This document shows positions 2,188 to 24,227 of a stretch of 64,000 nt of DNA, one piece after another. Position numbers and translations under genes: made by a program. The stretch is from the NCBI RefSeq assembly GCF_003790525.1, contig NZ_CP033635.1. One strand, written 5' to 3'. Every line of letters begins with the position of its first letter. The stretch's first letter is position 1. The notes below the pieces were generated by a model. The model was not told the DNA's origin. It saw nothing but the letters and a program-made list of their open reading frames with translations, and made no database searches. The stretch is from Escherichia coli. GTDB lineage: Bacteria; Pseudomonadota; Gammaproteobacteria; Enterobacterales; Enterobacteriaceae.

Positions 2188-4658
2188 TGGCTATCAGTTG
2201 GATCCAGCCCAGCTTTGCCGGTGGTGAGATTGGACCGTCGTTGTACGGGCGTATTGACATGGCGAAGTACCAGGTAGCATTGCGCAAGTGCGATAACTTT
2301 ATCGTGCGGCAGTATGGCGGCGTTGAGAATCGACCTGGTACGCGTTTTGTCGGTGCCGCCAAATACCCAAATCGGAAATGCCGCCTGATCCCGTTCCAAT
2401 TCTCGACGGTTCAGACTTATGCTCTGGAGTTCGGACACCAGTACATGCGCGTTATCAAAGATGGTGCGTTGGTGCTGAACAGCAGCAATGTTATTTATGA
2501 AATTGCCACGCCATATACTGAAGCCGATCTGTTCCGAATTAAATTCACGCAAAGCGCCGACGTGCTTACGCTGGTTCACCCGGCATACCCGCCGAAAGAG
2601 CTGCGCCGCTATGCGCATGACAACTGGCAACTGGTTGATGTGGTAACGAAGAACGGGCCATTTGAAGATATCAATATTGATGAGTCAGTGACGGTTTATG
2701 CCAGCGCCAGCACCGGGACAATTACGTTAACGGCAAGCGCCTCTATTTTTGGCGCGGAGCAGGTAGGCAAATTGTTCTATCTGGAACAGCCTGCAGTGGA
2801 TTCTGTGCCGGTATGGGAAACCAGTAAGAGTACGTCGATTGGCGATATTCGCCGTGCAGACAGTAACTACTATCGCGCCGTTACAGCAGGCAAAACAGGC
2901 ACTTTGCGCCCTTCGCATACAGAAGGCACATCATGGGATGGCTGGGGCGGATCCGGTGATGATGATACTGGCATTGAGTGGGAGTATCTGCACAGTGGTT
3001 TTGGCATTGCCCGTATAACTGCTGTAAATGGCACTACTGCAACTGCTGAGGTGATTTCCTATATCCCTTCGCAGGTCGTTGGCGAGGATAATGCCAGCTA
3101 TAAATGGGCTAAATATGCCTGGAACAGTGTTAATGGTTATCCTGGCACTGTTGTTTATTATCAACAACGTCTTTACTTCGCCGCATCGACTGCGTTCCCT
3201 CAGACCATCTGGGCCAGCCGTACCGGGGATTATAAGGATTTTGGCAAAAGCAATCCTACGCAGGATGACGACAGAATTATCTACACCTATGCCGGGCGTC
3301 AGGTTAATGAGATCCGTCACCTGATTGATGTTGGTTCTCTGGTGGCGCTGACTTCCGGAGGTGAGTACGTCATCACCGGCGACCAGAACAAAGTGTTAAC
3401 CCCATCATCATTTGCATTCAGCTCTCAGGGATCAAATGGCTCGAGTAATGTCCCACCAATTGCCGTAGCGAATATTGCTCTGTTCGTCCAGGAGAAAGGC
3501 AGTGTTGTCCGTGATCTGGCCTACTCATTCGATGTTGACGGCTATCAGGGGAACGACCTGACCATCCTTGCCAATCATCTTTTTCAGAAGCACAGCATTG
3601 TTGACTGGTGCTTCTCGATTGTCCCTTACTCCAGCGCCTTCTGCATCCGTGATGACGGTAAATTACTGGTGATGACCTATTTGCGTGATCAACAGGTTTT
3701 TGCATGGGCACCACAGTCCAGTACCGGAAAATATGAAAGCACATGCAGTATCAGCGAAGGCAATGAAGATGCGGTGTATTTCGTCGTTAACCGAACCGTT
3801 AACGGGCAAACAGTGAGATACATCGAGAGACTGTCCAGCCGTTTATTTACCAGCGATGAAGATGCTTTCTTTGTTGATTCTGGCCTTAGCTATGATGGAA
3901 GAAATACGTCTGACAGAACGATGACCATCACTGGTGGTTCTGGTGAATGGGATTACCGCGCGGAATATACAATCAGTGTTTCTGGTGGTGCGTACTTCAC
4001 CAGTAGTGATGTCGGTGCGCAACTACAGTTCCCTTATACCGGAACTGATCCTGATACTGGCGATGAAGTGTCAAAAGAATTACGTTGCGACATTATTTCT
4101 GTAACCAGCAATACCGCTGTAGTGGTTCGTGCTAACAGGAACGTCCCGCCATCCCTCAGGAATGTGGCCACCACGAACTGGCAGATGGCGCGCCGGACAT
4201 TTGGAGGCCTGTCTCATCTTGAAGGCCAGACCGTAAACATTCTTTCTGATGCGAATGTTGAGCCACAGAAAGTTGTTTCCGGAGGTGCCGTCACACTGGA
4301 ATCACCGGGGGCTGTAGTGCACATCGGCCTGCCAATAACTGCTGAATTCGAAACACTGGATATCAACATTAACGGACAGGAAACGCTGCTGGACAAAAAA
4401 CAGGTGATCCCCTCCGTTACTCTGGTTGTGAATGCCAGCCGCGGCATCTGGGCGACTACGCCTGGCGGTAAATGGTACGAACATCCACAGCGTGAATTCG
4501 AGTTCTACGATGATCCTGTTGATGATGCTACCGGAAAAGTAGAAGTGAAACTGGACAGTAACTGGGGCAAAAACGGACGTGTAAAAATCCGTCAGCTTGA
4601 CCCGTTGCCGCTGTCTGTTCTTGCCGTTATTCCTCGCCTTACTGTTGGGGGATTCTGA
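2187..4658 (+). CDS. Tail tubular protein B-like (T7 gp12-like, nozzle)
   Basis: 823 aa directly after the gp11-like gene; N-terminal GG...RPG pattern like gp12; TGATG overlap at both ends. Confidence 0.6.
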   Translation: MAISWIQPSFAGGEIGPSLYGRIDMAKYQVALRKCDNFIVRQYGGVENRPGTRFVGAAKYPNRKCRLIPFQFSTVQTYALEFGHQYMRVIKDGALVLNSSNVIYEIATPYTEADLFRIKFTQSADVLTLVHPAYPPKELRRYAHDNWQLVDVVTKNGPFEDINIDESVTVYASASTGTITLTASASIFGAEQVGKLFYLEQPAVDSVPVWETSKSTSIGDIRRADSNYYRAVTAGKTGTLRPSHTEGTSWDGWGGSGDDDTGIEWEYLHSGFGIARITAVNGTTATAEVISYIPSQVVGEDNASYKWAKYAWNSVNGYPGTVVYYQQRLYFAASTAFPQTIWASRTGDYKDFGKSNPTQDDDRIIYTYAGRQVNEIRHLIDVGSLVALTSGGEYVITGDQNKVLTPSSFAFSSQGSNGSSNVPPIAVANIALFVQEKGSVVRDLAYSFDVDGYQGNDLTILANHLFQKHSIVDWCFSIVPYSSAFCIRDDGKLLVMTYLRDQQVFAWAPQSSTGKYESTCSISEGNEDAVYFVVNRTVNGQTVRYIERLSSRLFTSDEDAFFVDSGLSYDGRNTSDRTMTITGGSGEWDYRAEYTISVSGGAYFTSSDVGAQLQFPYTGTDPDTGDEVSKELRCDIISVTSNTAVVVRANRNVPPSLRNVATTNWQMARRTFGGLSHLEGQTVNILSDANVEPQKVVSGGAVTLESPGAVVHIGLPITAEFETLDININGQETLLDKKQVIPSVTLVVNASRGIWATTPGGKWYEHPQREFEFYDDPVDDATGKVEVKLDSNWGKNGRVKIRQLDPLPLSVLAVIPRLTVGGF

Positions 4659-12468: not shown

Positions 12469-12882
12469 ATGAAGGAATTATTGCTGTTATCGGTATTTTT
12501 GATATCCGCTTGCTCGACATCCTATGATGTTTATGACGGTGTTGATAAGGCATATTGCGACAAAGTTAAAATGGATTTTTCTCTTGCCAAGACGGCGAAG
12601 GATAGTTGTATTGATCACTACGTCAAGACTTATACCAAGCCAGCCTCATCGGCATCTGATATTGCTGAAGGTGCTGTGTTTGAGTGTAACAAGGTGATAT
12701 CCATCGCAGCGAGTTCTTCATACGATGCTGCTGTATGTGCAATGGCTGAAAGAAACGGCATGTCAGTGCAAAAAATTAATAGCATGATAAGCAGTAATGA
12801 CGAAGCCAAAATAAGAACTGATATCAGCTCGGTGAAAAAAGATGCCATGAACAGAGTTGTAAAATATCAGTCATCTTTATAA
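12469..12882 (+). CDS. Prophage lipoprotein (signal peptide with lipobox L-I-S-A-C), 137 aa, AT-rich gene
   Basis: N-terminus MKELLLLSVFLISAC read directly; AAGGA RBS; sits at the start of the accessory island. Confidence 0.65.
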   Translation: MKELLLLSVFLISACSTSYDVYDGVDKAYCDKVKMDFSLAKTAKDSCIDHYVKTYTKPASSASDIAEGAVFECNKVISIAASSSYDAAVCAMAERNGMSVQKINSMISSNDEAKIRTDISSVKKDAMNRVVKYQSSL

Positions 12883-12897
12883 GTCGTGACATGTCAC

Positions 12898-12922
12898 AGG
12901 CCGCTTTCGCGGCCTTGTTTTT
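12898..12922 (+). terminator. Intrinsic terminator of the structural operon / lipoprotein gene
   Basis: AGGCCGC-TTTC-GCGGCCT hairpin followed by TGTTTTT. Confidence 0.6.
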
Positions 12923-13082
12923 AACGAATGCCACCGCCACCCGGGCGGGAATCCGCAGAACGCCCACCGCAGCGGGAGCCGTCAGCAGCAGTGTCGCTGT
13001 CGTGCTGACAACGACCGGCAAAGGCCTGAGTTGAAGCTACCAGAGACAACAAAACGAACAGTGCAGCAAATGCTTTTTTCAT
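12921..13082 (-). CDS. Candidate small secreted peptide (53 aa, Sec signal MKKAFAALFVLLSLVASTQAFA, two Cys)
   Basis: Internal ATG of the 77-aa ORF; convincing signal peptide but weak RBS; possible TTGACG / TATAGA promoter just upstream. Confidence 0.3.
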   Translation of the reverse strand: MKKAFAALFVLLSLVASTQAFAGRCQHDSDTAADGSRCGGRSADSRPGGGGIR

Positions 13083-13154
13083 TGTGAAATTTCCATCTAT
13101 AAGCCACCTCAATGTGGCGTCAATGAGTGTAGCACTGACTTTTGTTTCGCCCAC

Positions 13155-13176
13155 AAAAAAGCCCGCAGCGCGGGCT
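13155..13176 (-). terminator. Intrinsic terminator of the cargo operon
   Basis: AGCCCGC-GCU-GCGGGCU hairpin followed by six U on the - strand; overlaps the stop codon at 13175. Confidence 0.6.
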
Positions 13177-13615
13177 ATTCTTCTTCATCATTAAAAAGCG
13201 GATTGTTGTTTCCATCTGATGAAAGGAAAGGTATGTGTTCTCTTGAAAATCCAACAATGACAATTTCATTATCATTTTTTGCATAATGAATGCATTCATT
13301 AGAATGCCTTCCGCCAGGGTTGAAATTTAAGTTAATGGTATAATTCTTAAATGTGTTTGGATACCATGTTGGCCCACAATGATAATGCCAATAATTCTCT
13401 TGCTCATAATTGTCTGAGCCGGGAATTTTATCATGGTTATCATCAACCCACGAGGGCTTGTTTTTTCCAACAAGCGCCCTTCCATTGGCAACATCCTCTA
13501 AAAAACTTTGTATGATTTTTATTTCATCATCAGTAAGGAAAGGTCCGTCTACAGCGAAAGGGGTGTTGCTTTCCCCATGTAGAAAACTATTAGATATTCT
13601 AATGTTAAACTTCAA
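13175..13615 (-). CDS. Hypothetical cargo protein, about 146 aa, low GC, Asn-rich, no recognised domain
   Basis: Probable TTG start at 13615 with AGGAG RBS 6 nt upstream, 20 nt after the stop of the 55-aa ORF; ORF track shows a longer frame from 13756 that overlaps the upstream gene. Confidence 0.5.
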   Translation of the reverse strand: MKFNIRISNSFLHGESNTPFAVDGPFLTDDEIKIIQSFLEDVANGRALVGKNKPSWVDDNHDKIPGSDNYEQENYWHYHCGPTWYPNTFKNYTINLNFNPGGRHSNECIHYAKNDNEIVIVGFSREHIPFLSSDGNNNPLFNDEEE

Positions 13616-13635
13616 GGAAAACTCCTGATGTGCTT

Positions 13636-13803
13636 CTATTTGGAGCGAAATGCCGCCTTGAAGTCGCTGAAAGATGTTCCTGTCTGGTAAACCATATCCT
13701 TGTCGCGCTCTTTGCTTGCGCGGCCAAGCATAACTTTTCCAATGACATCCCAGCATTGCTTGGCTTGTTCATTGTGCTGAGTACGATTTTTCAACGCTGT
13801 CAT
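13636..13803 (-). CDS. Small protein (55 aa), first gene of the cargo operon; possible regulator or antitoxin-like partner
   Basis: ATG with AGGAGG RBS 6 nt upstream, placed immediately downstream of promoter P_A; translated by hand. Confidence 0.5.
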   Translation of the reverse strand: MTALKNRTQHNEQAKQCWDVIGKVMLGRASKERDKDMVYQTGTSFSDFKAAFRSK

Positions 13804-13902: not shown

Positions 13903-14589
13903 TCAGAAGAACCCAGCCTTGTCGTTGATGTACTCCGCGTGGGTCTGGATATCACGCAGGCATTTGCTCACACCAACAATGTAGCAGAACATGGTGGTCA
14001 GCTCCGCCGCCGCGCCCGATACGTCGTGCCCGTCTTCCTGTAACTGGTTCAGCAGATTCATCAGCAGTGAGTTCTCCGTCAGGCCGAGAACACCAGACGG
14101 AGAATGAATCAGGCTGCGGTAGCCGGGCTTCAGTGGGGCACTGTAGGTTTTGTTCTCTATCTTCATTGCCTGCATCACTGCTGATGCTGTGGCGTTGGCT
14201 ACCTGGTCGGCAACTATCTTTATGCGTTCTTCCTGCGGGAGCGAGTTTTTAATGTAACTTCCGGTGCGGCGGATCTGAGGAAGAACCTCACCTGTAACCC
14301 ATTTACGAAAGCGGTAGGGGATAGTGCCTGGTGTCACTGCGTCGCGGCAGCGGAGGATCAGTGTGTAGAGGCCTGACTCGTTGATAATATTGGTTTCACC
14401 TTGACGGCCTAAGTTAAATTTAGCCCTTTCATCATCATCAAGAGATTTTATTGACATAGTGGGGTTTGTCAGTTGAAGAGCTTTAATAACGTCTTTGGCA
14501 ACAAACCAAGGATTTCCATCAATAACAATGGCTCGAATGGTGGCTTCTGATTCAAAATGAAAAACAGATGGGGTTACGTTAGCAGTCAT
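13903..14589 (-). CDS. Antirepressor-like protein with N-terminal BRO-N / AntA-type domain, 228 aa
   Basis: Motifs FHFE...IR..IDG.PWFVAKDV and ESGLY.LI read in the translation (BRO-N family, from memory); start set at ATG 14589 with AAGGTGA RBS rather than ORF-track 14742, which has no RBS and a Gly/Cys-rich non-protein-like extension. Confidence 0.8.
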   Translation of the reverse strand: MTANVTPSVFHFESEATIRAIVIDGNPWFVAKDVIKALQLTNPTMSIKSLDDDERAKFNLGRQGETNIINESGLYTLILRCRDAVTPGTIPYRFRKWVTGEVLPQIRRTGSYIKNSLPQEERIKIVADQVANATASAVMQAMKIENKTYSAPLKPGYRSLIHSPSGVLGLTENSLLMNLLNQLQEDGHDVSGAAAELTTMFCYIVGVSKCLRDIQTHAEYINDKAGFF

Positions 14590-14742
14590 AGTGATCACCT
14601 TTGTAGTTAGGTTAATCACCACTACCGACGCCAATCGGTTGGTGGTGAACTGTGCAGGGTTGGCGTAACCGGCTACAAAGGACCCGGCGCACCTTTCGGT
14701 GCCCCCACACAGCCCACCATAGAATAGGTGCGCTTTACACAT

Positions 14743-15354: not shown

Positions 15355-17544
15355 ATGACGGTCTCAACCGAAGTTGACCACAACGAATACACCGGTAACG
15401 GCGTTACGACATCATTTCCGTATACCTTCCGTATTTTCAAAAAAACCGACCTGGTTGTTCAGGTGTCTGACCTGAACGGGAACGTAACAGAATTGGTTCT
15501 GGATACCGGTTATAAGGTAACTGGAGCGGGCACTTATAGTGGCGGTGAAGTGGTTCTCCAGTCGCCGCTTGCTGCTGGCTGGCGAATTACGATAGAGCGT
15601 GTGCTTGATGTGGTGCAGGAGACTGATCTTCGCAATCAGGGAAAATTTTTCCCCGAAGTTCATGAAGATGCATTTGACTACCTGACGATGCTGATCCAGC
15701 GATGTTTTGGGTGGTTCAGACGTGCATTGATGAAACCATCTTTGCTTGCAAAATATTACGATGCAAAGCAAAACAAAATTTCTAACCTTGCAGATCCATC
15801 ATTTGAGCAGGACGCTGTAAATAATCGCTCAATGCGTAATTATGTCGATGCTGCAATCGCCGGGGTTGTTGGTGGTTTTGGTTGGTTTATACCGTCAGGA
15901 AGCGGGGCAAGACAACGAACATTTCAAAGCAAAATGAGGGATATAATTTCTCCTTGTGATTACGAAGATAATATTTTTATGATTAAGGAGTTGATATCCA
16001 AAGGCAAAAATGCCGCTGTTTTTAACTCATATTATACTTTTGTTATTACTGTTGGCGAATGGGGTGATTTCCCTACACTCAAAGATGCAATCATTGCAGC
16101 CCAGTCAATGAGACCTATGTGGGATGGTGGTAATGCTTTCTGCGAAATAAGAATTAAGACCGGGCATATTATCAACTATCAAATTGAATTCAGTTCAGGT
16201 GTTGATTTGTCTTGGATTAAAATAACATCAGAAGACTCAGTGGTTTTCTCTGACACTCGTTTGTTTACTAAAATCGTTAGAACGTATTACGAATACAAGT
16301 ATTTATTTTACATTTGCGATGCAGCAAAAAGTCCTGTATTTGCTATTCAGATCGAAGAAAATAGAGATGATAGCGATGTTTGTGCATTTATTGTAACTCA
16401 AAAAGCTGAACTTAATTTCTATCCGTATTCAGGTGCTCGAAAGTTCTACGTTGGAATTCATGGTAGTTTTGGTGCAAAAATTAGTGCATATCATACCGGA
16501 TGTGCTCCTGATGAGGAAAGTGTTGCTGCATATATGCCAGAAGGGTATTACGTATGTGATTTTTCTTATAGCAGATACTCTTCCCTGCAACTGGTAAATA
16601 ATGTCAAGGCATCAATGCCTGTAAGCAAGTTTGAACGGTGCACAGAGAGTACGGTTGCGTCAGTTAATTGTATTTATAATGTTAAAGCAGATTTTCAGGG
16701 GTCAAGTGCAAGCTATTGTTATATAGGATGGAATGTAAGAGATGGTTCAAATGTTAATATACGCGACCATAAAACTATACATTGCTCATATCGTGGATTA
16801 ACCTGCATTCATACAGCATATGTTGATGCAAGACGACATGACGTTGAAGAAAGTGATGCAGAAACAAGTGGTAAAGTCCTTGAACCAAATATTGAAAAAG
16901 GTTTTTATGGATGTGCACTTGGTGTGCGTATTGATGGTGCGGGTTGCGTTGATGTTGCTGGTAATGATATGCGCAATTGTGGAACAGCCGTTAATGCAGA
17001 CACTGGTGCTGTTATTTCAGGAAAGGCTGTAGATATCTCAGGGGCTGAGCTGGGATTTGATTGCCATGCAGGAGCATCTGTTAATTTTCCAAGGCTATGG
17101 GGTACAGATATAAAAAAATTAATGCACCTCCAAGATGGTGTAAGGTTTAACTCTAATATTTGTCATGTATTTGGTGCAAATCCCACAAAAGATATTAGAT
17201 GGATTGATGTAGAGAGATCTGAAGCTTCTTTTATGAATGCAACGCTGGATGCAGATTCAGGATTTATTGCCGACTGTGGTAGTAGGATAACCATTGAAGG
17301 AAGTAAAGTTAAAAACCAAACAATAAGAAGTTTTTTTGGATCATATGTGGCTATAAATAATACTGTTGCTGACAGAACTTATTCAGATATAGCCGATGTT
17401 CCGCAGTTGACTATTAGTGGAGGATCTTTTATTTCTGCTACAGGATATTCTAATTCTGACTCCAGCCCTCTGAGGTTGAGCACAACACGAAATACACTTG
17501 GCGTTGGAGGAGCCATATTTTCAACCAATGGGGAAGTTTCATGA
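15355..17544 (+). CDS. Tailspike / tail fiber protein, 729 aa: conserved N-terminal virion-attachment domain plus divergent C-terminal receptor-binding part
   Basis: N-terminus carries the YTGNGVTT.F.Y.F pattern typical of podovirus tail fiber or tailspike adapters (from memory); C-terminal two thirds are AT-rich and Cys-rich; GGAG RBS 7 nt upstream. Confidence 0.7.
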   Translation: MTVSTEVDHNEYTGNGVTTSFPYTFRIFKKTDLVVQVSDLNGNVTELVLDTGYKVTGAGTYSGGEVVLQSPLAAGWRITIERVLDVVQETDLRNQGKFFPEVHEDAFDYLTMLIQRCFGWFRRALMKPSLLAKYYDAKQNKISNLADPSFEQDAVNNRSMRNYVDAAIAGVVGGFGWFIPSGSGARQRTFQSKMRDIISPCDYEDNIFMIKELISKGKNAAVFNSYYTFVITVGEWGDFPTLKDAIIAAQSMRPMWDGGNAFCEIRIKTGHIINYQIEFSSGVDLSWIKITSEDSVVFSDTRLFTKIVRTYYEYKYLFYICDAAKSPVFAIQIEENRDDSDVCAFIVTQKAELNFYPYSGARKFYVGIHGSFGAKISAYHTGCAPDEESVAAYMPEGYYVCDFSYSRYSSLQLVNNVKASMPVSKFERCTESTVASVNCIYNVKADFQGSSASYCYIGWNVRDGSNVNIRDHKTIHCSYRGLTCIHTAYVDARRHDVEESDAETSGKVLEPNIEKGFYGCALGVRIDGAGCVDVAGNDMRNCGTAVNADTGAVISGKAVDISGAELGFDCHAGASVNFPRLWGTDIKKLMHLQDGVRFNSNICHVFGANPTKDIRWIDVERSEASFMNATLDADSGFIADCGSRITIEGSKVKNQTIRSFFGSYVAINNTVADRTYSDIADVPQLTISGGSFISATGYSNSDSSPLRLSTTRNTLGVGGAIFSTNGEVS

Positions 17545-17837
17545 TTAAGAGCATTGATGTCACTCCATTTCTTCACTCGCTTTGCGCTTTTGCGGCTCAG
17601 GTACTGGTTGGTATTTTTACCGGAAACTGGGCTTACGGTGCGATAGCCGGTTGTACGTTCTTCATTGCGCGTGAACACACCCAGGCAGAATATCGCTGGA
17701 TAGAAAAGTTTGGGAAAGGGAAACGTATCAACATGCCGTGGTGGGGAGGTTTTGATCCACGCGTGTGGGATGTGGGAAGTCTGTTGGATTTTGCTGTTCC
17801 TGTTGTTTTTTGTTTTTGTGTTTATTTCTCTATTTGA
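17541..17837 (+). CDS. Small membrane protein (98 aa, two hydrophobic helices)
   Basis: ATGA overlap with the tailspike stop; hydrophobic stretches in translation. Confidence 0.5.
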   Translation: MIKSIDVTPFLHSLCAFAAQVLVGIFTGNWAYGAIAGCTFFIAREHTQAEYRWIEKFGKGKRINMPWWGGFDPRVWDVGSLLDFAVPVVFCFCVYFSI

Positions 17838-18039
17838 CTGCTACCGCGCCATTAAATGGTGCGGTATTCAACCTGCTCTTCACTGTTTGTTTCTTCAGAG
17901 TCATGTAAAAGGTGAGCTTTATTCTCGGCATGAAAAACAGGGAATTGACGATGTTAAAGTAACAAAAAACCATAAATGGTTTATTATGCGTAATGCTTTA
18001 CTGTTCAGGAGGTTGTTATGCATATAAACGGTGGAAAAC

Positions 18040-18444
18040 ATGTCAGCTCAACTAACCAGTGAAACTTTAAATCAGTGGCTTAGCATGAGTTCTCTGGCGG
18101 CGGTGATAGCAGGAGTTCCTCCTGAGGTTGCTTTGGGTGCTTTGGCTGGAGCGGTAATTTTTGTTACCTCTGCAGTAGAGTACCCCATCCGTCGCCGGGT
18201 GCTCCTGTCGATGCTCAGCTTTCTTTGCGGCCTTCTCTTTTACAAACCAGCAGCATCAATTCTTATCGGCATAGCCAGCCTGATCCCTACCATCACGCAG
18301 GACTCTTTTGAAAAAGGGATTGTTTTCTCTGCAGGCGCATTCGTGTCAGCAATTGTCGCTGTGCGTATTGGTATATGGCTCTATCACCGTTCCGATAATC
18401 CACGCGAGTTAATTCCGGGGAGAAAAGACGATGGTAACGCATGA
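18040..18444 (+). CDS. Membrane protein, holin or antiholin candidate (in-frame alternative start GTG 18031)
   Basis: Several predicted transmembrane stretches; two in-frame starts three codons apart (GTG-GAA-AAC-ATG). Confidence 0.45.
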   Translation: MSAQLTSETLNQWLSMSSLAAVIAGVPPEVALGALAGAVIFVTSAVEYPIRRRVLLSMLSFLCGLLFYKPAASILIGIASLIPTITQDSFEKGIVFSAGAFVSAIVAVRIGIWLYHRSDNPRELIPGRKDDGNA

Positions 18445-18739
18445 GTTTTTTTTGCTTATCACCAATGCAGTTATTTGCACTGGCATAGCAATTCGCGTTG
18501 TCACATTCCGGCGTAACGGCTCTCAACACCGAAGGTGGGGAGGATGGCTTGCTTATTTCCTGATTGTTGCTGCGGCCAGTATTCCTGTTCGTGTCGCCTA
18601 TGCAATCTGGTTACGTACGCCAATGGCTGTGGATTTATCTGAGGTCATTATCAACGCTGTCATGCTAGCTGCGGTTATTAAAACGCGCGGTAACGTCGTT
18701 CAAATTTTCAAAGTATCGAGGTCTAAACATGGAGATTAA
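18431..18739 (+). CDS. Holin candidate (102 aa, 2-3 transmembrane helices) immediately upstream of the endolysin
   Basis: Position and hydrophobicity pattern; overlaps neighbours at both ends. Confidence 0.5.
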
Positions 18740-19358
18740 ACAATTCCAGCGAGCTGCTGGTATCAGCGAGGCACTGGCCGCACGCTGGTTCTCGCATATA
18801 ACTTCTGCGATGAAAGAGTTTGGTATCAGCAAACCAGAAGATCAGGCTATGTTTATTGCTCAGGTCGGGCATGAGTCTGGAGGCTTCACCCGGTTGCAGG
18901 AGAATTTCAACTACAGCGTCAGCGGACTGGCTAACTTTGTTCGGGCTGGGCGTCTCACTCAGGGACAGGCCAACGCATTGGGGCGACGTGCAGGCGAACC
19001 ACCATTGCCACTTGAGCGCCAGAGAGCGATTGCCAATCTGGTGTACAGCAAACGCATGGGGAACAATGCCCCTGGTGATGGCTGGAACTACCGTGGGCGC
19101 GGGCTTATCCAGGTTACCGGTTTGAATAACTATCGTGACTGTGGAAACGGTCTTAAGGTTGACCTGCTGGAGAGTCCTGAACTGCTGGCGCAGGACGAAT
19201 ACGCGGCTCGTAGCGCGGCGTGGTTCTTTGCCAGCAAAGGATGCATGAAGTATACCGGCGATATTGCACGTGTAACTCTGATTATCAATGGTGGCCGGAA
19301 CGGCATCGACGACCGGCGCGCGCGATACATCAATGCCAGTAAGGTGCTGGCGGTATGA
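18729..19358 (+). CDS. Endolysin, glycoside hydrolase family 19 (chitinase-like) type
   Basis: Motifs [18 protein letters not shown] and NYRD read in the translation, recalled as GH19-type phage lysozyme signatures; position between holin and Rz. Confidence 0.8.
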
Positions 19359-19837
19359 TCTGGGCATTCGTAAAAGCATACTGGAAACAGTTGGTTATCA
19401 TGGCGATGCTTGCTGTTCTGGTCATATCAGGAGTTGTAGCCTGGAATGCACACGGTAGTCGTCAGTACGACGCCGGGTATGCGCAGGCGGAAGAAGACCG
19501 CAAAGACGAAGAAGACAAAGTTCGTCAGTACTACGAACAGGAGAAAGTGACCAATGAACGTGAAGCGCAGCAAAGAATCGACCAGGCGCGCAATGATGCT
19601 CTTGATGCTGCCGCTCGCGCTGGCAGGTTGCAGCAACAACTCTTTGCCATCCGTGAGCAGCTCAGGCAGTATAACGCCATTGTCGGCGCTGGGACGTCAG
19701 CCGCAGACACCGGAGTTTTGCTTGCCGACGTGCTCAGCAAATCTCTCGAGAGAAACAGACAACTGGCAGAGTATGCTGACCGGGCAGCCGAAGCCGGAAG
19801 AGTCTGCGAAAAACAGTACGACACCCTGACCAGATAG
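19355..19837 (+). CDS. Rz-like i-spanin (N-terminal transmembrane helix, coiled-coil periplasmic domain)
   Basis: ATGA overlap with endolysin stop; typical Rz architecture. Confidence 0.7.
19554..19829 (+). CDS. Rz1-like o-spanin lipoprotein, fully embedded in the Rz gene in the +1 frame
   Basis: Signal peptide ending in lipobox LAGC, Pro-rich mature part, embedded arrangement as in lambda Rz/Rz1 (established knowledge). Confidence 0.65.
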   Translation: MNVKRSKESTRRAMMLLMLPLALAGCSNNSLPSVSSSGSITPLSALGRQPQTPEFCLPTCSANLSRETDNWQSMLTGQPKPEESAKNSTTP

Positions 19838-19992
19838 CATGGTATTTTTCATGGCACTGATTTCCGGTGACGGTATATAAAACGGTACGGGAAAAGTTGA
19901 GCTTTGGAAAAATGTTATCACTCAATTGGTTATGGTGTCCGTGAATAATTGAGTGGGAATGATTTTGATCCCTGCACTATGAATGAACAAAA

Positions 19993-20018
19993 CCCTCTGT
20001 TACTACAGAGGGTTTTTT
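19993..20018. terminator. Bidirectional intrinsic terminator (CCCTCTGT-TACT-ACAGAGGG flanked by A-run and T-run) at the prophage / yfgI junction
   Basis: Perfect 8-bp stem with six T after it on + and four on -. Confidence 0.6.
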
Positions 20019-20056
20019 ATACTCACGAATCATAGGCTTGAAGTTACTGACATCGC

Positions 20057-20596
20057 TTAGTTAAACCAGCTGTCCGATTTGTTCTCTTCTGCTTTGCCCA
20101 CGCTTTTCATCAGATCGCGACCGCCTTCAGTCATATTTCTGTTTGCGTCAGCTTCAGATTGCACCACATCGGTTTGCGCAGCTTTGTGCTTCAGTTCCTG
20201 ATCGATAAATTCGTTTTCTCGCTTAACGCGGGCTTCTTCTTTCGCCAGCGCCAGTTTTTGTTTCTGAATCTCTAAGCTGCGTAGCTCATCTTCATAACTT
20301 TGATCGCGTTTTTTGTCCGCAGTGGCTTCGGCGTCCAGTTTATCCTGACGAGCTTTCTTATTCGCTGCTGCCGTTGCCGCTCTTTTATTAGCCGCGGCCT
20401 GGGCGTTTGCGCGACGTTGCTTCTCTTGCTGGATTTCCCTGTTGCGCTCCGCGACCCATTCGTCATGCTGCCTTTGCTCTTCATTTTTACCTTGCTGTTC
20501 CGCTTCTGCGACAGCAGAGAGTTGATCCTGCAATGATGAGGCGATAGCCGGATAGCTTAAGGAGGCTAAGATGGCGCAAAGAAAAACTTTCTTCAT
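20057..20596 (-). CDS. yfgI: YfgI, periplasmic protein (179 aa)
   Basis: Signal peptide plus Lys/Glu/Ala-rich repeats; matches recalled K-12 protein and gene order. Confidence 0.85.
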   Translation of the reverse strand: MKKVFLCAILASLSYPAIASSLQDQLSAVAEAEQQGKNEEQRQHDEWVAERNREIQQEKQRRANAQAAANKRAATAAANKKARQDKLDAEATADKKRDQSYEDELRSLEIQKQKLALAKEEARVKRENEFIDQELKHKAAQTDVVQSEADANRNMTEGGRDLMKSVGKAEENKSDSWFN

Positions 20597-21632: not shown

Positions 21633-21983
21633 AAAAGGTTCCTTGAAGTATGTCCCACGCTGTGGACAGTACTTACATTAAGGCACAACAGGACAAAATG
21701 GTCAATTCTTCGTTATGTAAAAAAGCGTCAGTGGATACATATTTTAATGTTATGGAAGTTAATTTAATTATTTACAATGATGATGTAATAATGATGAATT
21801 AACATGATAAACGTAATAATTCATTAATCAGGGTTATTTTGTTTGATATATATCAATTGGAACTTTCATATGACACTTAGAATCAATGCTCTCTATAGTG
21901 ATGAATAATCATCATTCGAAGTCAGGTGGGATGCCTGTCTGAATACACCTCCTTCAGGATGTGGGGGATTCTGCTGAGCATCT

Positions 21984-24227
21984 ATGAAACTGAATGCAAC
22001 TTATATAAAAATACGTGATAAATGGTGGGGGCTTCCGCTGTTCCTGCCTTCTTTAATCTTGCCCATTTTCGCCCACATTAATACTTTCGCGCATATTTCT
22101 TCCGGTGAGGTTTTTCTCTTTTATCTGCCTCTGGCTCTGATGATCAGCATGATGATGTTTTTCAGCTGGGCGGCATTGCCAGGGATCGCCTTAGGGATTT
22201 TTGTCCGCAAATATGCAGAGCTGGGTTTTTACGAAACGCTCTCATTAACGGCTAATTTTATTATCATTATCATTCTCTGTTGGGGCGGTTACAGGGTCTT
22301 TACTCCCCGGCGTAACAACGTTTCACATGGTGATACCCGTTTAATTTCCCAGCGTATATTCTGGCAGATTGTGTTTCCTGCAACGCTGTTTCTGATACTT
22401 TTCCAGTTTGCTGCGTTTGTAGGATTACTGGCGAGCAGAGAAAATCTGGTCGGCGTCATGCCTTTTAACCTCGGGACCTTAATCAATTATCAGGCCTTAC
22501 TGGTGGGCAATCTGATTGGTGTCCCGCTGTGCTACTTCATCATTCGTGTAGTGCGAAATCCGTTTTATTTACGCAGTTATTATTCGCAATTAAAACAGCA
22601 GGTTGATGTCAAAGTCACCAAAAAAGAGTTCGCACTCTGGCTACTGGCATTAGGTGCTTTACTGCTGCTGTTATGCATGCCGTTAAATGAAAAAAGCACA
22701 ATTTTTAGCACCAACTATACCTTGTCATTATTGCTGCCCCTGATGATGTGGGGAGCGATGCGCTATGGTTATAAGCTGATTTCGCTGCTCTGGGCGGTCG
22801 TGTTGATGATCAGCATCCACAGCTATCAAAATTACATTCCCATTTATCCTGGCTATACCACGCAACTGACCATAACCTCCTCCAGTTATCTGGTATTCTC
22901 TTTTATTGTCAATTATATGGCTGTACTGGCAACCCGTCAGCGAGCGGTAGTCAGACGCATTCAGCGGCTTGCGTATGTGGACCCGGTGGTTCATCTGCCA
23001 AATGTTCGCGCCCTGAATCGCGCGTTGCGTGATGCCCCCTGGTCTGCGCTTTGTTATTTACGCATCCCTGGCATGGAAATGCTGGTTAAGAACTATGGCA
23101 TCATGCTACGGATTCAATACAAGCAAAAACTTTCTCACTGGCTGTCACCCTTGCTGGAACCGGGTGAAGATGTTTATCAGCTTTCGGGTAACGATCTCGC
23201 GCTGCGACTGAATACAGAATCGCACCAGGAGCGCATTACCGAACTGGATAGCCATCTCAAGCAATTTCGTTTCTTTTGGGATGGAATGCCGATGCAACCG
23301 CAGATTGGCGTCAGTTACTGCTATGTGCGCTCGCCAGTGAATCATATCTACCTGCTGCTGGGAGAGCTAAATACGGTCGCCGAGCTTTCCATCGTGACCA
23401 ACGCCCCGGAAAATATGCAGCGTCGCGGGGCAATGTATTTGCAACGCGAATTGAAAGATAAAGTCGCGATGATGAATCGGCTACAGCAGGCGCTGGAACA
23501 CAACCATTTTTTCCTGATGGCCCAGCCGATTACCGGTATGCGTGGTGATGTCTACCATGAAATTCTTCTGCGCATGAAAGGTGAGAATGATGAACTGATC
23601 AGCCCCGACAGCTTCTTGCCGGTCGCGCACGAATTTGGTTTATCGTCGAGTATCGACATGTGGGTCATTGAGCATACGCTGCAATTTATGGCTGAAAACA
23701 GAGCGAAGATGCCCGCTCACCGTTTTGCGATTAATCTGTCGCCAACCTCGGTATGTCAGGCGCGTTTTCCCGTTGAAGTCAGTCAGCTGCTGGCTAAATA
23801 TCAAATTGAAGCGTGGCAACTTATTTTTGAAGTCACCGAAAGTAATGCTCTGACCAATGTTAAGCAGGCGCAAATCACCTTGCAGCATCTTCAGGAATTA
23901 GGCTGCCAGATTGCGATTGATGATTTCGGCACCGGCTATGCCAGCTATGCGCGGCTTAAAAATGTGAATGCCGATTTGCTTAAAATTGACGGCAGTTTTA
24001 TCCGCAATATTGTGTCAAATAGTCTGGATTATCAGATAGTGGCGTCGATTTGCCACCTGGCGCGAATGAAGAAAATGCGGGTAGTGGCAGAGTACGTTGA
24101 AAACGAAGAGATCCGCGAGGCGGTGTTCTCTTTGGGGATCGATTATATGCAGGGTTATCTTATTGGTAAGCCGCAACCGTTAATTGATACGCTGAATGAA
24201 ATCGAACCCATTCGCGAAAGTGCCTGA
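21984..24227 (+). CDS. pdeF: Cyclic-di-GMP phosphodiesterase PdeF (YfgF), membrane MASE1 domain plus GGDEF-like and EAL domains
   Basis: 747 aa with N-terminal multi-helix membrane region and C-terminal EAL-type motifs; K-12 order after ppx. Confidence 0.9.
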   Translation: MKLNATYIKIRDKWWGLPLFLPSLILPIFAHINTFAHISSGEVFLFYLPLALMISMMMFFSWAALPGIALGIFVRKYAELGFYETLSLTANFIIIIILCWGGYRVFTPRRNNVSHGDTRLISQRIFWQIVFPATLFLILFQFAAFVGLLASRENLVGVMPFNLGTLINYQALLVGNLIGVPLCYFIIRVVRNPFYLRSYYSQLKQQVDVKVTKKEFALWLLALGALLLLLCMPLNEKSTIFSTNYTLSLLLPLMMWGAMRYGYKLISLLWAVVLMISIHSYQNYIPIYPGYTTQLTITSSSYLVFSFIVNYMAVLATRQRAVVRRIQRLAYVDPVVHLPNVRALNRALRDAPWSALCYLRIPGMEMLVKNYGIMLRIQYKQKLSHWLSPLLEPGEDVYQLSGNDLALRLNTESHQERITELDSHLKQFRFFWDGMPMQPQIGVSYCYVRSPVNHIYLLLGELNTVAELSIVTNAPENMQRRGAMYLQRELKDKVAMMNRLQQALEHNHFFLMAQPITGMRGDVYHEILLRMKGENDELISPDSFLPVAHEFGLSSSIDMWVIEHTLQFMAENRAKMPAHRFAINLSPTSVCQARFPVEVSQLLAKYQIEAWQLIFEVTESNALTNVKQAQITLQHLQELGCQIAIDDFGTGYASYARLKNVNADLLKIDGSFIRNIVSNSLDYQIVASICHLARMKKMRVVAEYVENEEIREAVFSLGIDYMQGYLIGKPQPLIDTLNEIEPIRESA

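Follow-up and report, generated by a model that had tools for sequence, protein, structure and literature searches.

A predicted Rz/Rz1 spanin pair, with Rz1 nested in the +1 frame of Rz, at the right border of a Uetakevirus prophage integrated at guaA in Escherichia coli

Close to the right end of a prophage of Escherichia coli, a gene of 483 nt contains, in another reading frame, a second and shorter open reading frame (ORF). Is this ORF a gene in its own right, do the two frames encode the two subunits of a spanin, and what does their presence say about the prophage that carries them? We addressed these questions in the window, by which we mean the whole 64,000-nt stretch of E. coli DNA that was analysed (contig NZ_CP033635.1), and in which all features described here lie on the + strand. 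The answer that we favour, and which we consider very probably correct, is that the two frames are Rz and Rz1, an i-spanin/o-spanin pair with which the late lysis operon of a Uetakevirus (epsilon15/phiV10-type) prophage ends, the prophage being integrated at the guaA 3' end.

The outer frame, Rz (19355-19837), is an i-spanin ORF of 160 amino acids (aa) that matches phrog_312 'Rz-like spanin' at 1.6e-59 and the Pfam family DUF2514 (PF10721) at 9.3e-43, with 146.5 bits against a cut-off of 26; besides DUF2514, the Pfam scan at E <= 0.01 returned a sub-threshold match to SpoIIIAH. The hydropathy maximum of the protein (Kyte-Doolittle mean 2.37) falls on an N-terminal membrane helix at approximately residues 12-30 (nt 19388-19444), and since the same scan detected no second hydrophobic segment, Rz is predicted to possess a single N-terminal transmembrane helix, probably in type II orientation (N-in/C-out). 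In an AlphaFold2 model built from a 9-sequence alignment, and of moderate confidence (pLDDT 74.7, pTM 0.30), residues 10-110 form one helix and residues 115-159 another, with a break at 111-114. The periplasmic domain is thus modelled as long and mainly helical, composed of two helices separated by one break; helix contents of 84-85% are listed for the i-spanins of phiV10 and epsilon15 in SpaninDB (PMC6139136). A search of PDB sequences with an Rz profile returned only insignificant, coiled-coil-like matches (E >= 0.028).

Rz is preceded by three genes with which it forms a compact cassette. The first encodes a second holin-type membrane protein of 134 aa (18040-18444; phrog_198 holin, 6.9e-42; PF16931 Phage_holin_8, 4.4e-12). 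Its ATG lies at 18040, the mechanically called ORF beginning at a GTG at 18031, and its 405 nt equal the length of phiV10 p27 and epsilon15 gp23. It is followed by a holin of 102 aa of the Phage_holin_3_7 type (18431-18739; phrog_217, 1.5e-35; PF05449, 5.1e-27) and by a GH19-type endolysin of 209 aa (18729-19358; phrog_181, 2.5e-91; Pfam Glyco_hydro_19), residues 1-208 of which match the SPN1S endolysin (PDB 4OK7) at 1.7e-116. These genes overlap one another and Rz tightly, by 14, 11 and 4 nt, the last overlap being the ATGA at 19355-19358 that the Rz start shares with the endolysin stop. The Rz/Rz1 pair is translationally coupled to an intact endolysin and holins. Scanning all five lysis proteins against NCBIfam gave zero matches. 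Since all five genes have the full length of their phiV10 and epsilon15 counterparts, the cassette is complete by homology, and the earlier note was right to describe a complete Gram-negative lysis cassette, which comprises two holin-type proteins, a GH19 endolysin and Rz/Rz1.

Just to the right of this cassette the prophage ends. Phage homology stops at 19964 and homology to prophage-free E. coli, in which the matching features are guaA and yfgI, starts at 19948; the 17-bp overlap, ATTGAGTGGGAATGATT (19948-19964), is the attR core and copies the last bases of guaA. It occurs as a single exact copy in the window and is the core that has been published as attP/attB for phiV10, epsilon15 and vB_EcoP_ZX5 at the guaA 3' end (PMC9782041). 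In the host DNA immediately right of attR, folding identified a hairpin followed by a U-run (19989-20016), with a free energy of -18.2 kcal/mol (z = -6.07) that none of 200 shuffled sequences equalled. When the prophage is integrated, the lysis transcript probably terminates at this hairpin. A terminator scan of 17400-20200 did not call it, probably because A/T flanks lengthen the stem into the T-run, and direct folding confirmed it.

The earlier note had gone further and had taken the lysis cassette as support for a functional prophage rather than a remnant. As evidence that a prophage is viable, however, an intact lysis cassette is weak, and the pair could also be a genuine spanin by descent in a defective prophage, never expressed lytically, in which decay has not yet reached the lysis genes. 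The window opens inside the prophage, with a capsid-cement gene as its first gene, so that the right 20 kb of approximately 39-40 kb are visible and the view excludes the genes for integrase, immunity, replication, terminase, portal and major capsid protein; in E. coli EC332, used as an annotation proxy, the portal, protease and major capsid genes fall upstream of window position 1. Defects may thus be present in the left half. A stop at Rz codon 26 in one relative locus (L048) indicates that prophages of this kind are subject to decay, and in some E. coli genomes an IS200 element is inserted in the region. Against a defective prophage stand the unchanged phiV10/epsilon15 lengths of the five lysis ORFs and the large structural ORFs of the visible right arm, all of which are open and none broken. 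Moreover, 96% of this 20-kb arm is covered at 97.2% identity by phage HEMP4, and the arm is collinear with phiv142-3 and phiV10 except in the accessory and tailspike modules. Finally, the relative vB_EcoP_ZX5, which uses the same guaA site, was found to be spontaneously induced, at about 1e7 PFU/mL (PMC9782041). On balance, we regard a spanin stranded in a defective prophage as improbable.

We now turn to the inner frame. Rz1 (19554-19829) is an o-spanin ORF encoding a prolipoprotein of 91 aa with a mature part of 66 aa, and it matches phrog_11621 'Rz-like spanin' at 4.3e-41. It starts with an ATG in the +1 frame, 199 nt into Rz, its stop codon ending 8 nt short of the end of Rz; it therefore lies wholly inside Rz, exactly as the earlier note had it. 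In relative terms it extends from 199/483 nt (0.41 L) to 475/483 (0.98 L) of the Rz gene, and embedded o-spanins typically run from about 0.4-0.5 L to 0.9-1.0 L of the i-spanin gene (PMC6139136). Ten nucleotides 5' of the ATG, within the Rz coding sequence, is a GGAG (19540-19543), the putative Shine-Dalgarno sequence of Rz1: it is retained in 62 of 62 distinct related sequences, and the same 10-nt spacing is found in phages Akira, P184 and Magia.

The N-terminus of Rz1 carries a predicted signal-peptidase-II signal sequence (19554-19631, from a regular-expression match and hydropathy), in which a basic n-region precedes a hydrophobic core and a lipobox. The latter is LAGC, as had been claimed, at residues 23-26 (nt 19620-19631), with the codon of Cys26 at 19629-19631. 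The residue at +2 is Ser, and the absence of Asp at this position agrees with sorting to the outer membrane. The mature part had been called Pro-rich, which holds moderately, since 8 of its 66 residues (12%) are Pro, and is otherwise overstated: there is neither a Pro-Pro dipeptide nor a poly-proline run, and with 30% Ser/Thr the sequence is mainly Ser/Thr-rich. In an alignment of nine o-spanins the invariant columns are C26, Q49, P50, P53, C56, L57, T59, C60, S61, L64 and W71, most of which fall in a conserved core at residues 49-71 (19698-19766). This core is co-encoded with a conserved segment of Rz, whose invariant columns in nine homologues include L123 to D142. The periplasmic cysteines of the pair, C56 and C60 of mature Rz1 and C151, the sole Cys of Rz, are likewise invariant in the nine homologues.

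An embedded frame of this kind may arise without being used, and the +1 ORF could have no coding role and simply result from the codon composition of Rz, which would then be the sole gene of the locus. Its length is compatible with this explanation. Synonymous shuffling of Rz left the +1 frame open for at least 92 codons in 43% of cases and gave an ATG-initiated ORF of at least 91 codons in that frame in 14%, and across synonymous and codon-order shuffles +1 ORFs as long as Rz1 were obtained in 5-43% of trials; ORF length was dropped as evidence for Rz1, such lengths being common in shuffles. Database records also appear to favour Rz as the only gene. The exact Rz protein is found in NCBI on 38 contigs and the exact 91-aa product of the inner frame does not occur in a collection of 15 billion proteins; PGAP leaves Rz1 unannotated in EC332, the one genome for which the full feature table was inspected; and Rz1 gave zero matches to the NCBIfam and Pfam libraries that were scanned, the Pfam set not including PF28595. 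The precomputed PF28595 label is carried by 44 database relatives of Rz1. The phrog_11621 match and the listing of the o-spanin in the curated SpaninDB both speak against a non-coding frame.

Because the length of Rz1 alone is not significant, we relied on a test for ORFs with a lipoprotein signal and on comparative tests. An out-of-frame ORF whose start combined a charged n-region with a hydrophobic core and a lipobox Cys appeared in 8 of 20,000 synonymous shuffles, and a lipoprotein-type ORF out of frame in 3 of 20,000 codon-order shuffles, so that a signal peptide with a lipobox would be expected by chance at a frequency of only about 4e-4. The comparative set consisted of the window and 84 related loci from IMG/VR and GenBank, which reduce to 62 distinct Rz nucleotide sequences with identities of at least 86%. 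The Rz1 ATG, the length of 91 codons and the lipobox Cys are kept in all 62. Among the first 60 relatives, 58 have LAGC followed by S, one has LSGC and one has LAGC followed by R.

Substitutions that would interrupt the inner frame are avoided where the two frames overlap. None of the 32 possible changes creating a +1-frame stop is realised in the overlap, compared with 12 of 39 upstream of it (Fisher p = 3e-4), and of the changes that are synonymous in Rz and alter Rz1, 36 of 175 are realised in the overlap compared with 51 of 108 upstream (p = 5e-6); both tests count related sequences as independent events, and the contrast between upstream and overlap is weakened because each of the three codon positions varies more in the 5' part of Rz. 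The changes realised most often are those silent in both frames (5 of 8). Conservation of the C-terminal half of Rz1 is inseparable from that of the co-encoded Rz helix. The comparative evidence for Rz1 is stronger than that of the shuffles.

Conservation of the inner frame extends well beyond these close relatives. Rz genes of a Klebsiella prophage and of Klebsiella phage KP591P1, Salmonella phage Akira, Klebsiella schitovirus P184, Ralstonia phage DU_RP_II and Burkholderia phage Magia were read in the +1 frame. The Ralstonia, Burkholderia and schitovirus members share 29-34% identity with the Rz protein and 41-47% with Rz1. A nested +1 lipoprotein with the motif QPxxPxxCLxTCS was found in nine of the nine DUF2514-type Rz genes examined, and the core pattern shared across the distant phages is QPxxPxxCLxTCS...L......W. 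Their lipoboxes, LAGC, LVGC, LMGC or LAAC, are functionally kept; the LMGC of the Ralstonia o-spanin, which a regular-expression pass had missed, was recognised by reading the +1 frame. In phage Magia the pair is annotated as i-spanin/o-spanin and nested likewise, and in schitovirus P184 the o-spanin extends 25 nt beyond the stop of Rz and is thus overlapped, not embedded. With a lipoprotein signal that survives sequence divergence across phages of Klebsiella, Salmonella, Ralstonia and Burkholderia, and with ATG, Cys and length unbroken among the close relatives, a non-coding inner frame is very improbable, and Rz1 is best read as the o-spanin partner of Rz.

Which spanin family the pair belongs to is answered by its nearest relatives. 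DNA identity over the Rz/Rz1 region is 89% to phiV10 and 82-83% to epsilon15; the corresponding protein identities are 89% and 86% for Rz, and 94.5-95% (p30a) and 87-88.8% (p07) for Rz1. Both phages have two nested coding sequences annotated 'Rz-like spanin', with offset and lengths as here. In SpaninDB (Kongari et al. 2018, PMC6139136), both subunits of epsilon15, phiV10, TL-2011b, SPN1S and SPN9TCW are assigned to the embedded 'Bcep176 family', and the SpaninDB rows for epsilon15, phiV10 and TL-2011b read embedded, +1 frame, 483 nt, offset 199 and 8 nt from the end, with the o-spanin extending from 0.412 L to 0.983 L (PMC6139136). The comparison with curated spanin sets that the earlier note had proposed as a check is thus positive, the geometry in these rows being that of the window. 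The pair is already known, as an allele of a curated spanin family, and by sequence it is to be filed in the two-component embedded spanin class and in the Bcep176/DUF2514 family, with its PF28595 o-spanins.

How such a pair would act can be proposed by analogy with the lambda spanin paradigm (Berry, Rajaure, Cahill and Young; summarised in PMC6139136). As read from the two frames, which are both open and conserved in relatives, one stretch of DNA encodes two polypeptides, a predicted inner-membrane-anchored Rz and a predicted lipoprotein, Rz1, which is translated from the internal ATG in the +1 frame and has a lipoprotein signal without an inner-membrane retention residue. Lipidation of Rz1 would take place on Cys26; after cleavage by signal peptidase II, Lol would deliver the protein to the inner leaflet of the outer membrane. 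The C-terminal part of Rz1 would bind the C-terminal helix of Rz, and the resulting complex would thereby span the periplasm through the peptidoglycan mesh; covalent dimers may form through the periplasmic cysteines, C151 of Rz and C56 and C60 of Rz1. Once the holin has released the GH19 endolysin and the wall has been degraded, the Rz-Rz1 complexes would be free to collapse, and in doing so would fuse the inner and outer membranes, which would eliminate the final obstacle to the release of virions.

The literature searched yielded no experiment on lysis, lipidation or complex formation for Bcep176/DUF2514 spanins. These spanins may depart from the lambda mechanism in detail and use a different disulfide lock, a proposal to which we give a rather low probability and which arises from two features, an o-spanin without a proline-rich fusion motif and an invariant CxxxC opposite the single invariant Cys that lies close to the C-terminus of Rz. 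Such a lock could consist of an intramolecular CxxxC loop in the o-spanin or of a heterotypic Rz-Rz1 bond.

The significance of the locus is mostly limited to correct annotation. Automated pipelines call Rz only a 'DUF2514 domain-containing protein', the name under which the exact protein appears in NCBI, and leave out the nested Rz1; no o-spanin name occurs in the abbreviated feature lists of other matching genomes. The absence of Rz1 from these records is a known annotation gap for embedded o-spanins, and this o-spanin is systematically missed by automated annotation. Of 5,426 complete E. coli genomes, at least 362 have the Rz-attR-yfgI junction. The pair serves as a marker for the right end of a Uetakevirus prophage integrated at guaA and is by itself no proof of viability.

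Among known systems, those of phiV10 and epsilon15 are the closest. The Rz/Rz1 geometry of Salmonella phage epsilon15 (p06/p07) and of the E. coli phages phiV10 (p30/p30a) and TL-2011b is identical to that of the window pair, and phiV10 and epsilon15 share its gene order (membrane protein, holin, GH19 endolysin, Rz/Rz1, attP core) as well as the att core and the guaA site. Differences within the pair are allelic only, with a few substitutions in the membrane helix and linker of Rz and in the n-region of Rz1. The neighbouring tailspike and accessory genes differ, however, and the window prophage has an ORF for a 98-aa membrane protein where epsilon15 and phiV10 have an O-acetyltransferase or O-antigen polymerase module.

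The lambda Rz/Rz1 pair, by which the embedded two-component spanin was defined experimentally, shows the same design in another sequence family. Both pairs combine a type II inner-membrane protein whose two periplasmic helices are separated by a break with an outer-membrane lipoprotein nested in the +1 frame, a topology that is predicted in our case; the succession of membrane helix, first helix, linker and second helix in lambda Rz is also seen in the Rz model. Both have periplasmic cysteines and occupy the last position of the lysis cassette (PMC6139136). In contrast, at E <= 0.01 the Pfam models of lambda-type Rz and Rz1 were matched by neither protein of the window pair, and to judge by their sequences the two do not belong to the lambda Rz/Rz1 families. 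Mature Rz1 has approximately 40 aa in lambda and 66 aa here; that of lambda contains 24% Pro and a penta-proline run, whereas the window protein has half this Pro content and an invariant CLxTC motif in place of the penta-proline stretch (PMC6139136). Lambda Rz has two Cys, compared with one in the window Rz. By analogy, we infer that the pair works like lambda Rz/Rz1. Its o-spanin is fully embedded, which distinguishes it from the overlapped or separated architectures of P2 LysB/LysC and T4 PseT.3/PseT.2, and its membrane anchor and lipobox reside on two separate polypeptides, so that it is not a u-spanin of the kind represented by T1 gp11. With all three of these systems the window pair nevertheless has its functional class in common, the outer-membrane disruption that ends lysis (PMC6139136).

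At the spanin locus, only the outer gene, Rz (19355-19837, +), is represented in automated annotation: at the corresponding place in the proxy genome EC332 (21856-22338 of its locus), RefSeq/PGAP calls a single "DUF2514 domain-containing protein", with no annotation of the nested Rz1. In a collection of 15 billion proteins, a protein identical to Rz occurs on 38 contigs, and the exact product of Rz1 (19554-19829, +) was not found. In a close relative (L048, IMGVR_UViG_2703718858_000001), Rz carries a stop at codon 26, within the membrane helix, and the nested Rz1 frame is intact; this locus is an example of a decayed prophage spanin.

About 20 database proteins of 151-160 aa (mostly 157 aa) join a DUF2514 N-terminus to an Rz1 C-terminus (PF10721 + PF28595, the latter a precomputed label on Rz1 relatives). 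These hybrids, among them P0002, P0003, P0005, P0009 and P0016, are nearly all singletons from Logan assemblies, and their length is compatible with a shift to the +1 frame inside the overlap. They probably stem from frameshifts introduced in sequencing or assembly, not from a genuine fusion product.

Just to the right of the attR core (19948-19964), the host DNA carries a probable hairpin terminator (19989-20016), AACCCTCTGTTACTACAGAGGGTTTTTT. Phages phiV10 and epsilon15 have a close mimic of this host hairpin, the terminator AACCCTCTGTTTTTACAGAGGGTTTTT, at the equivalent position of their attP flanks (3540-3580 and 3500-3540 of their respective loci, L001 and L002). Integration would place the phage copy at attL, behind guaA, where it would stand in for the terminator that this gene loses.

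Further into the right arm, a BRO-N/Ant anti-repressor gene lies on the minus strand (13903-14742, 279 aa as a mechanical ORF). Its 5' end is overlapped and directly preceded by Rfam matches on the same strand to the C4 antisense RNA (RF01695, 14638-14724, 79.5 bits) and the Hfq-binding sRNA isrK (RF01394, 14743-14819, 74.7 bits). Together these RNAs and the Ant ORF look like an RNA-controlled anti-repressor module of the P1 immI type, and the true Ant start probably lies downstream of the mechanical one. The putative module has the tail genes on one side and the tailspike on the other.

A small accessory cluster (12469-13756), which separates the Ant module from the last internal-virion/tail gene, encodes a putative lipoprotein of 137 aa with a signal ending in ISAC (phrog_8691), a secreted or membrane-associated "moron" protein of 77 aa (phrog_3117/14503) and a protein of 193 aa with no known function (phrog_5954); its gene content differs from that of EC332. 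A predicted membrane protein of 98 aa with no known function (17541-17837, +; phrog_1443) overlaps the stop codon of the tailspike gene (ATGA) and fills the slot taken by the O-acetyltransferase oac in phiV10 and by O-antigen-conversion genes in epsilon15; it is possibly a different superinfection- or serotype-related moron.
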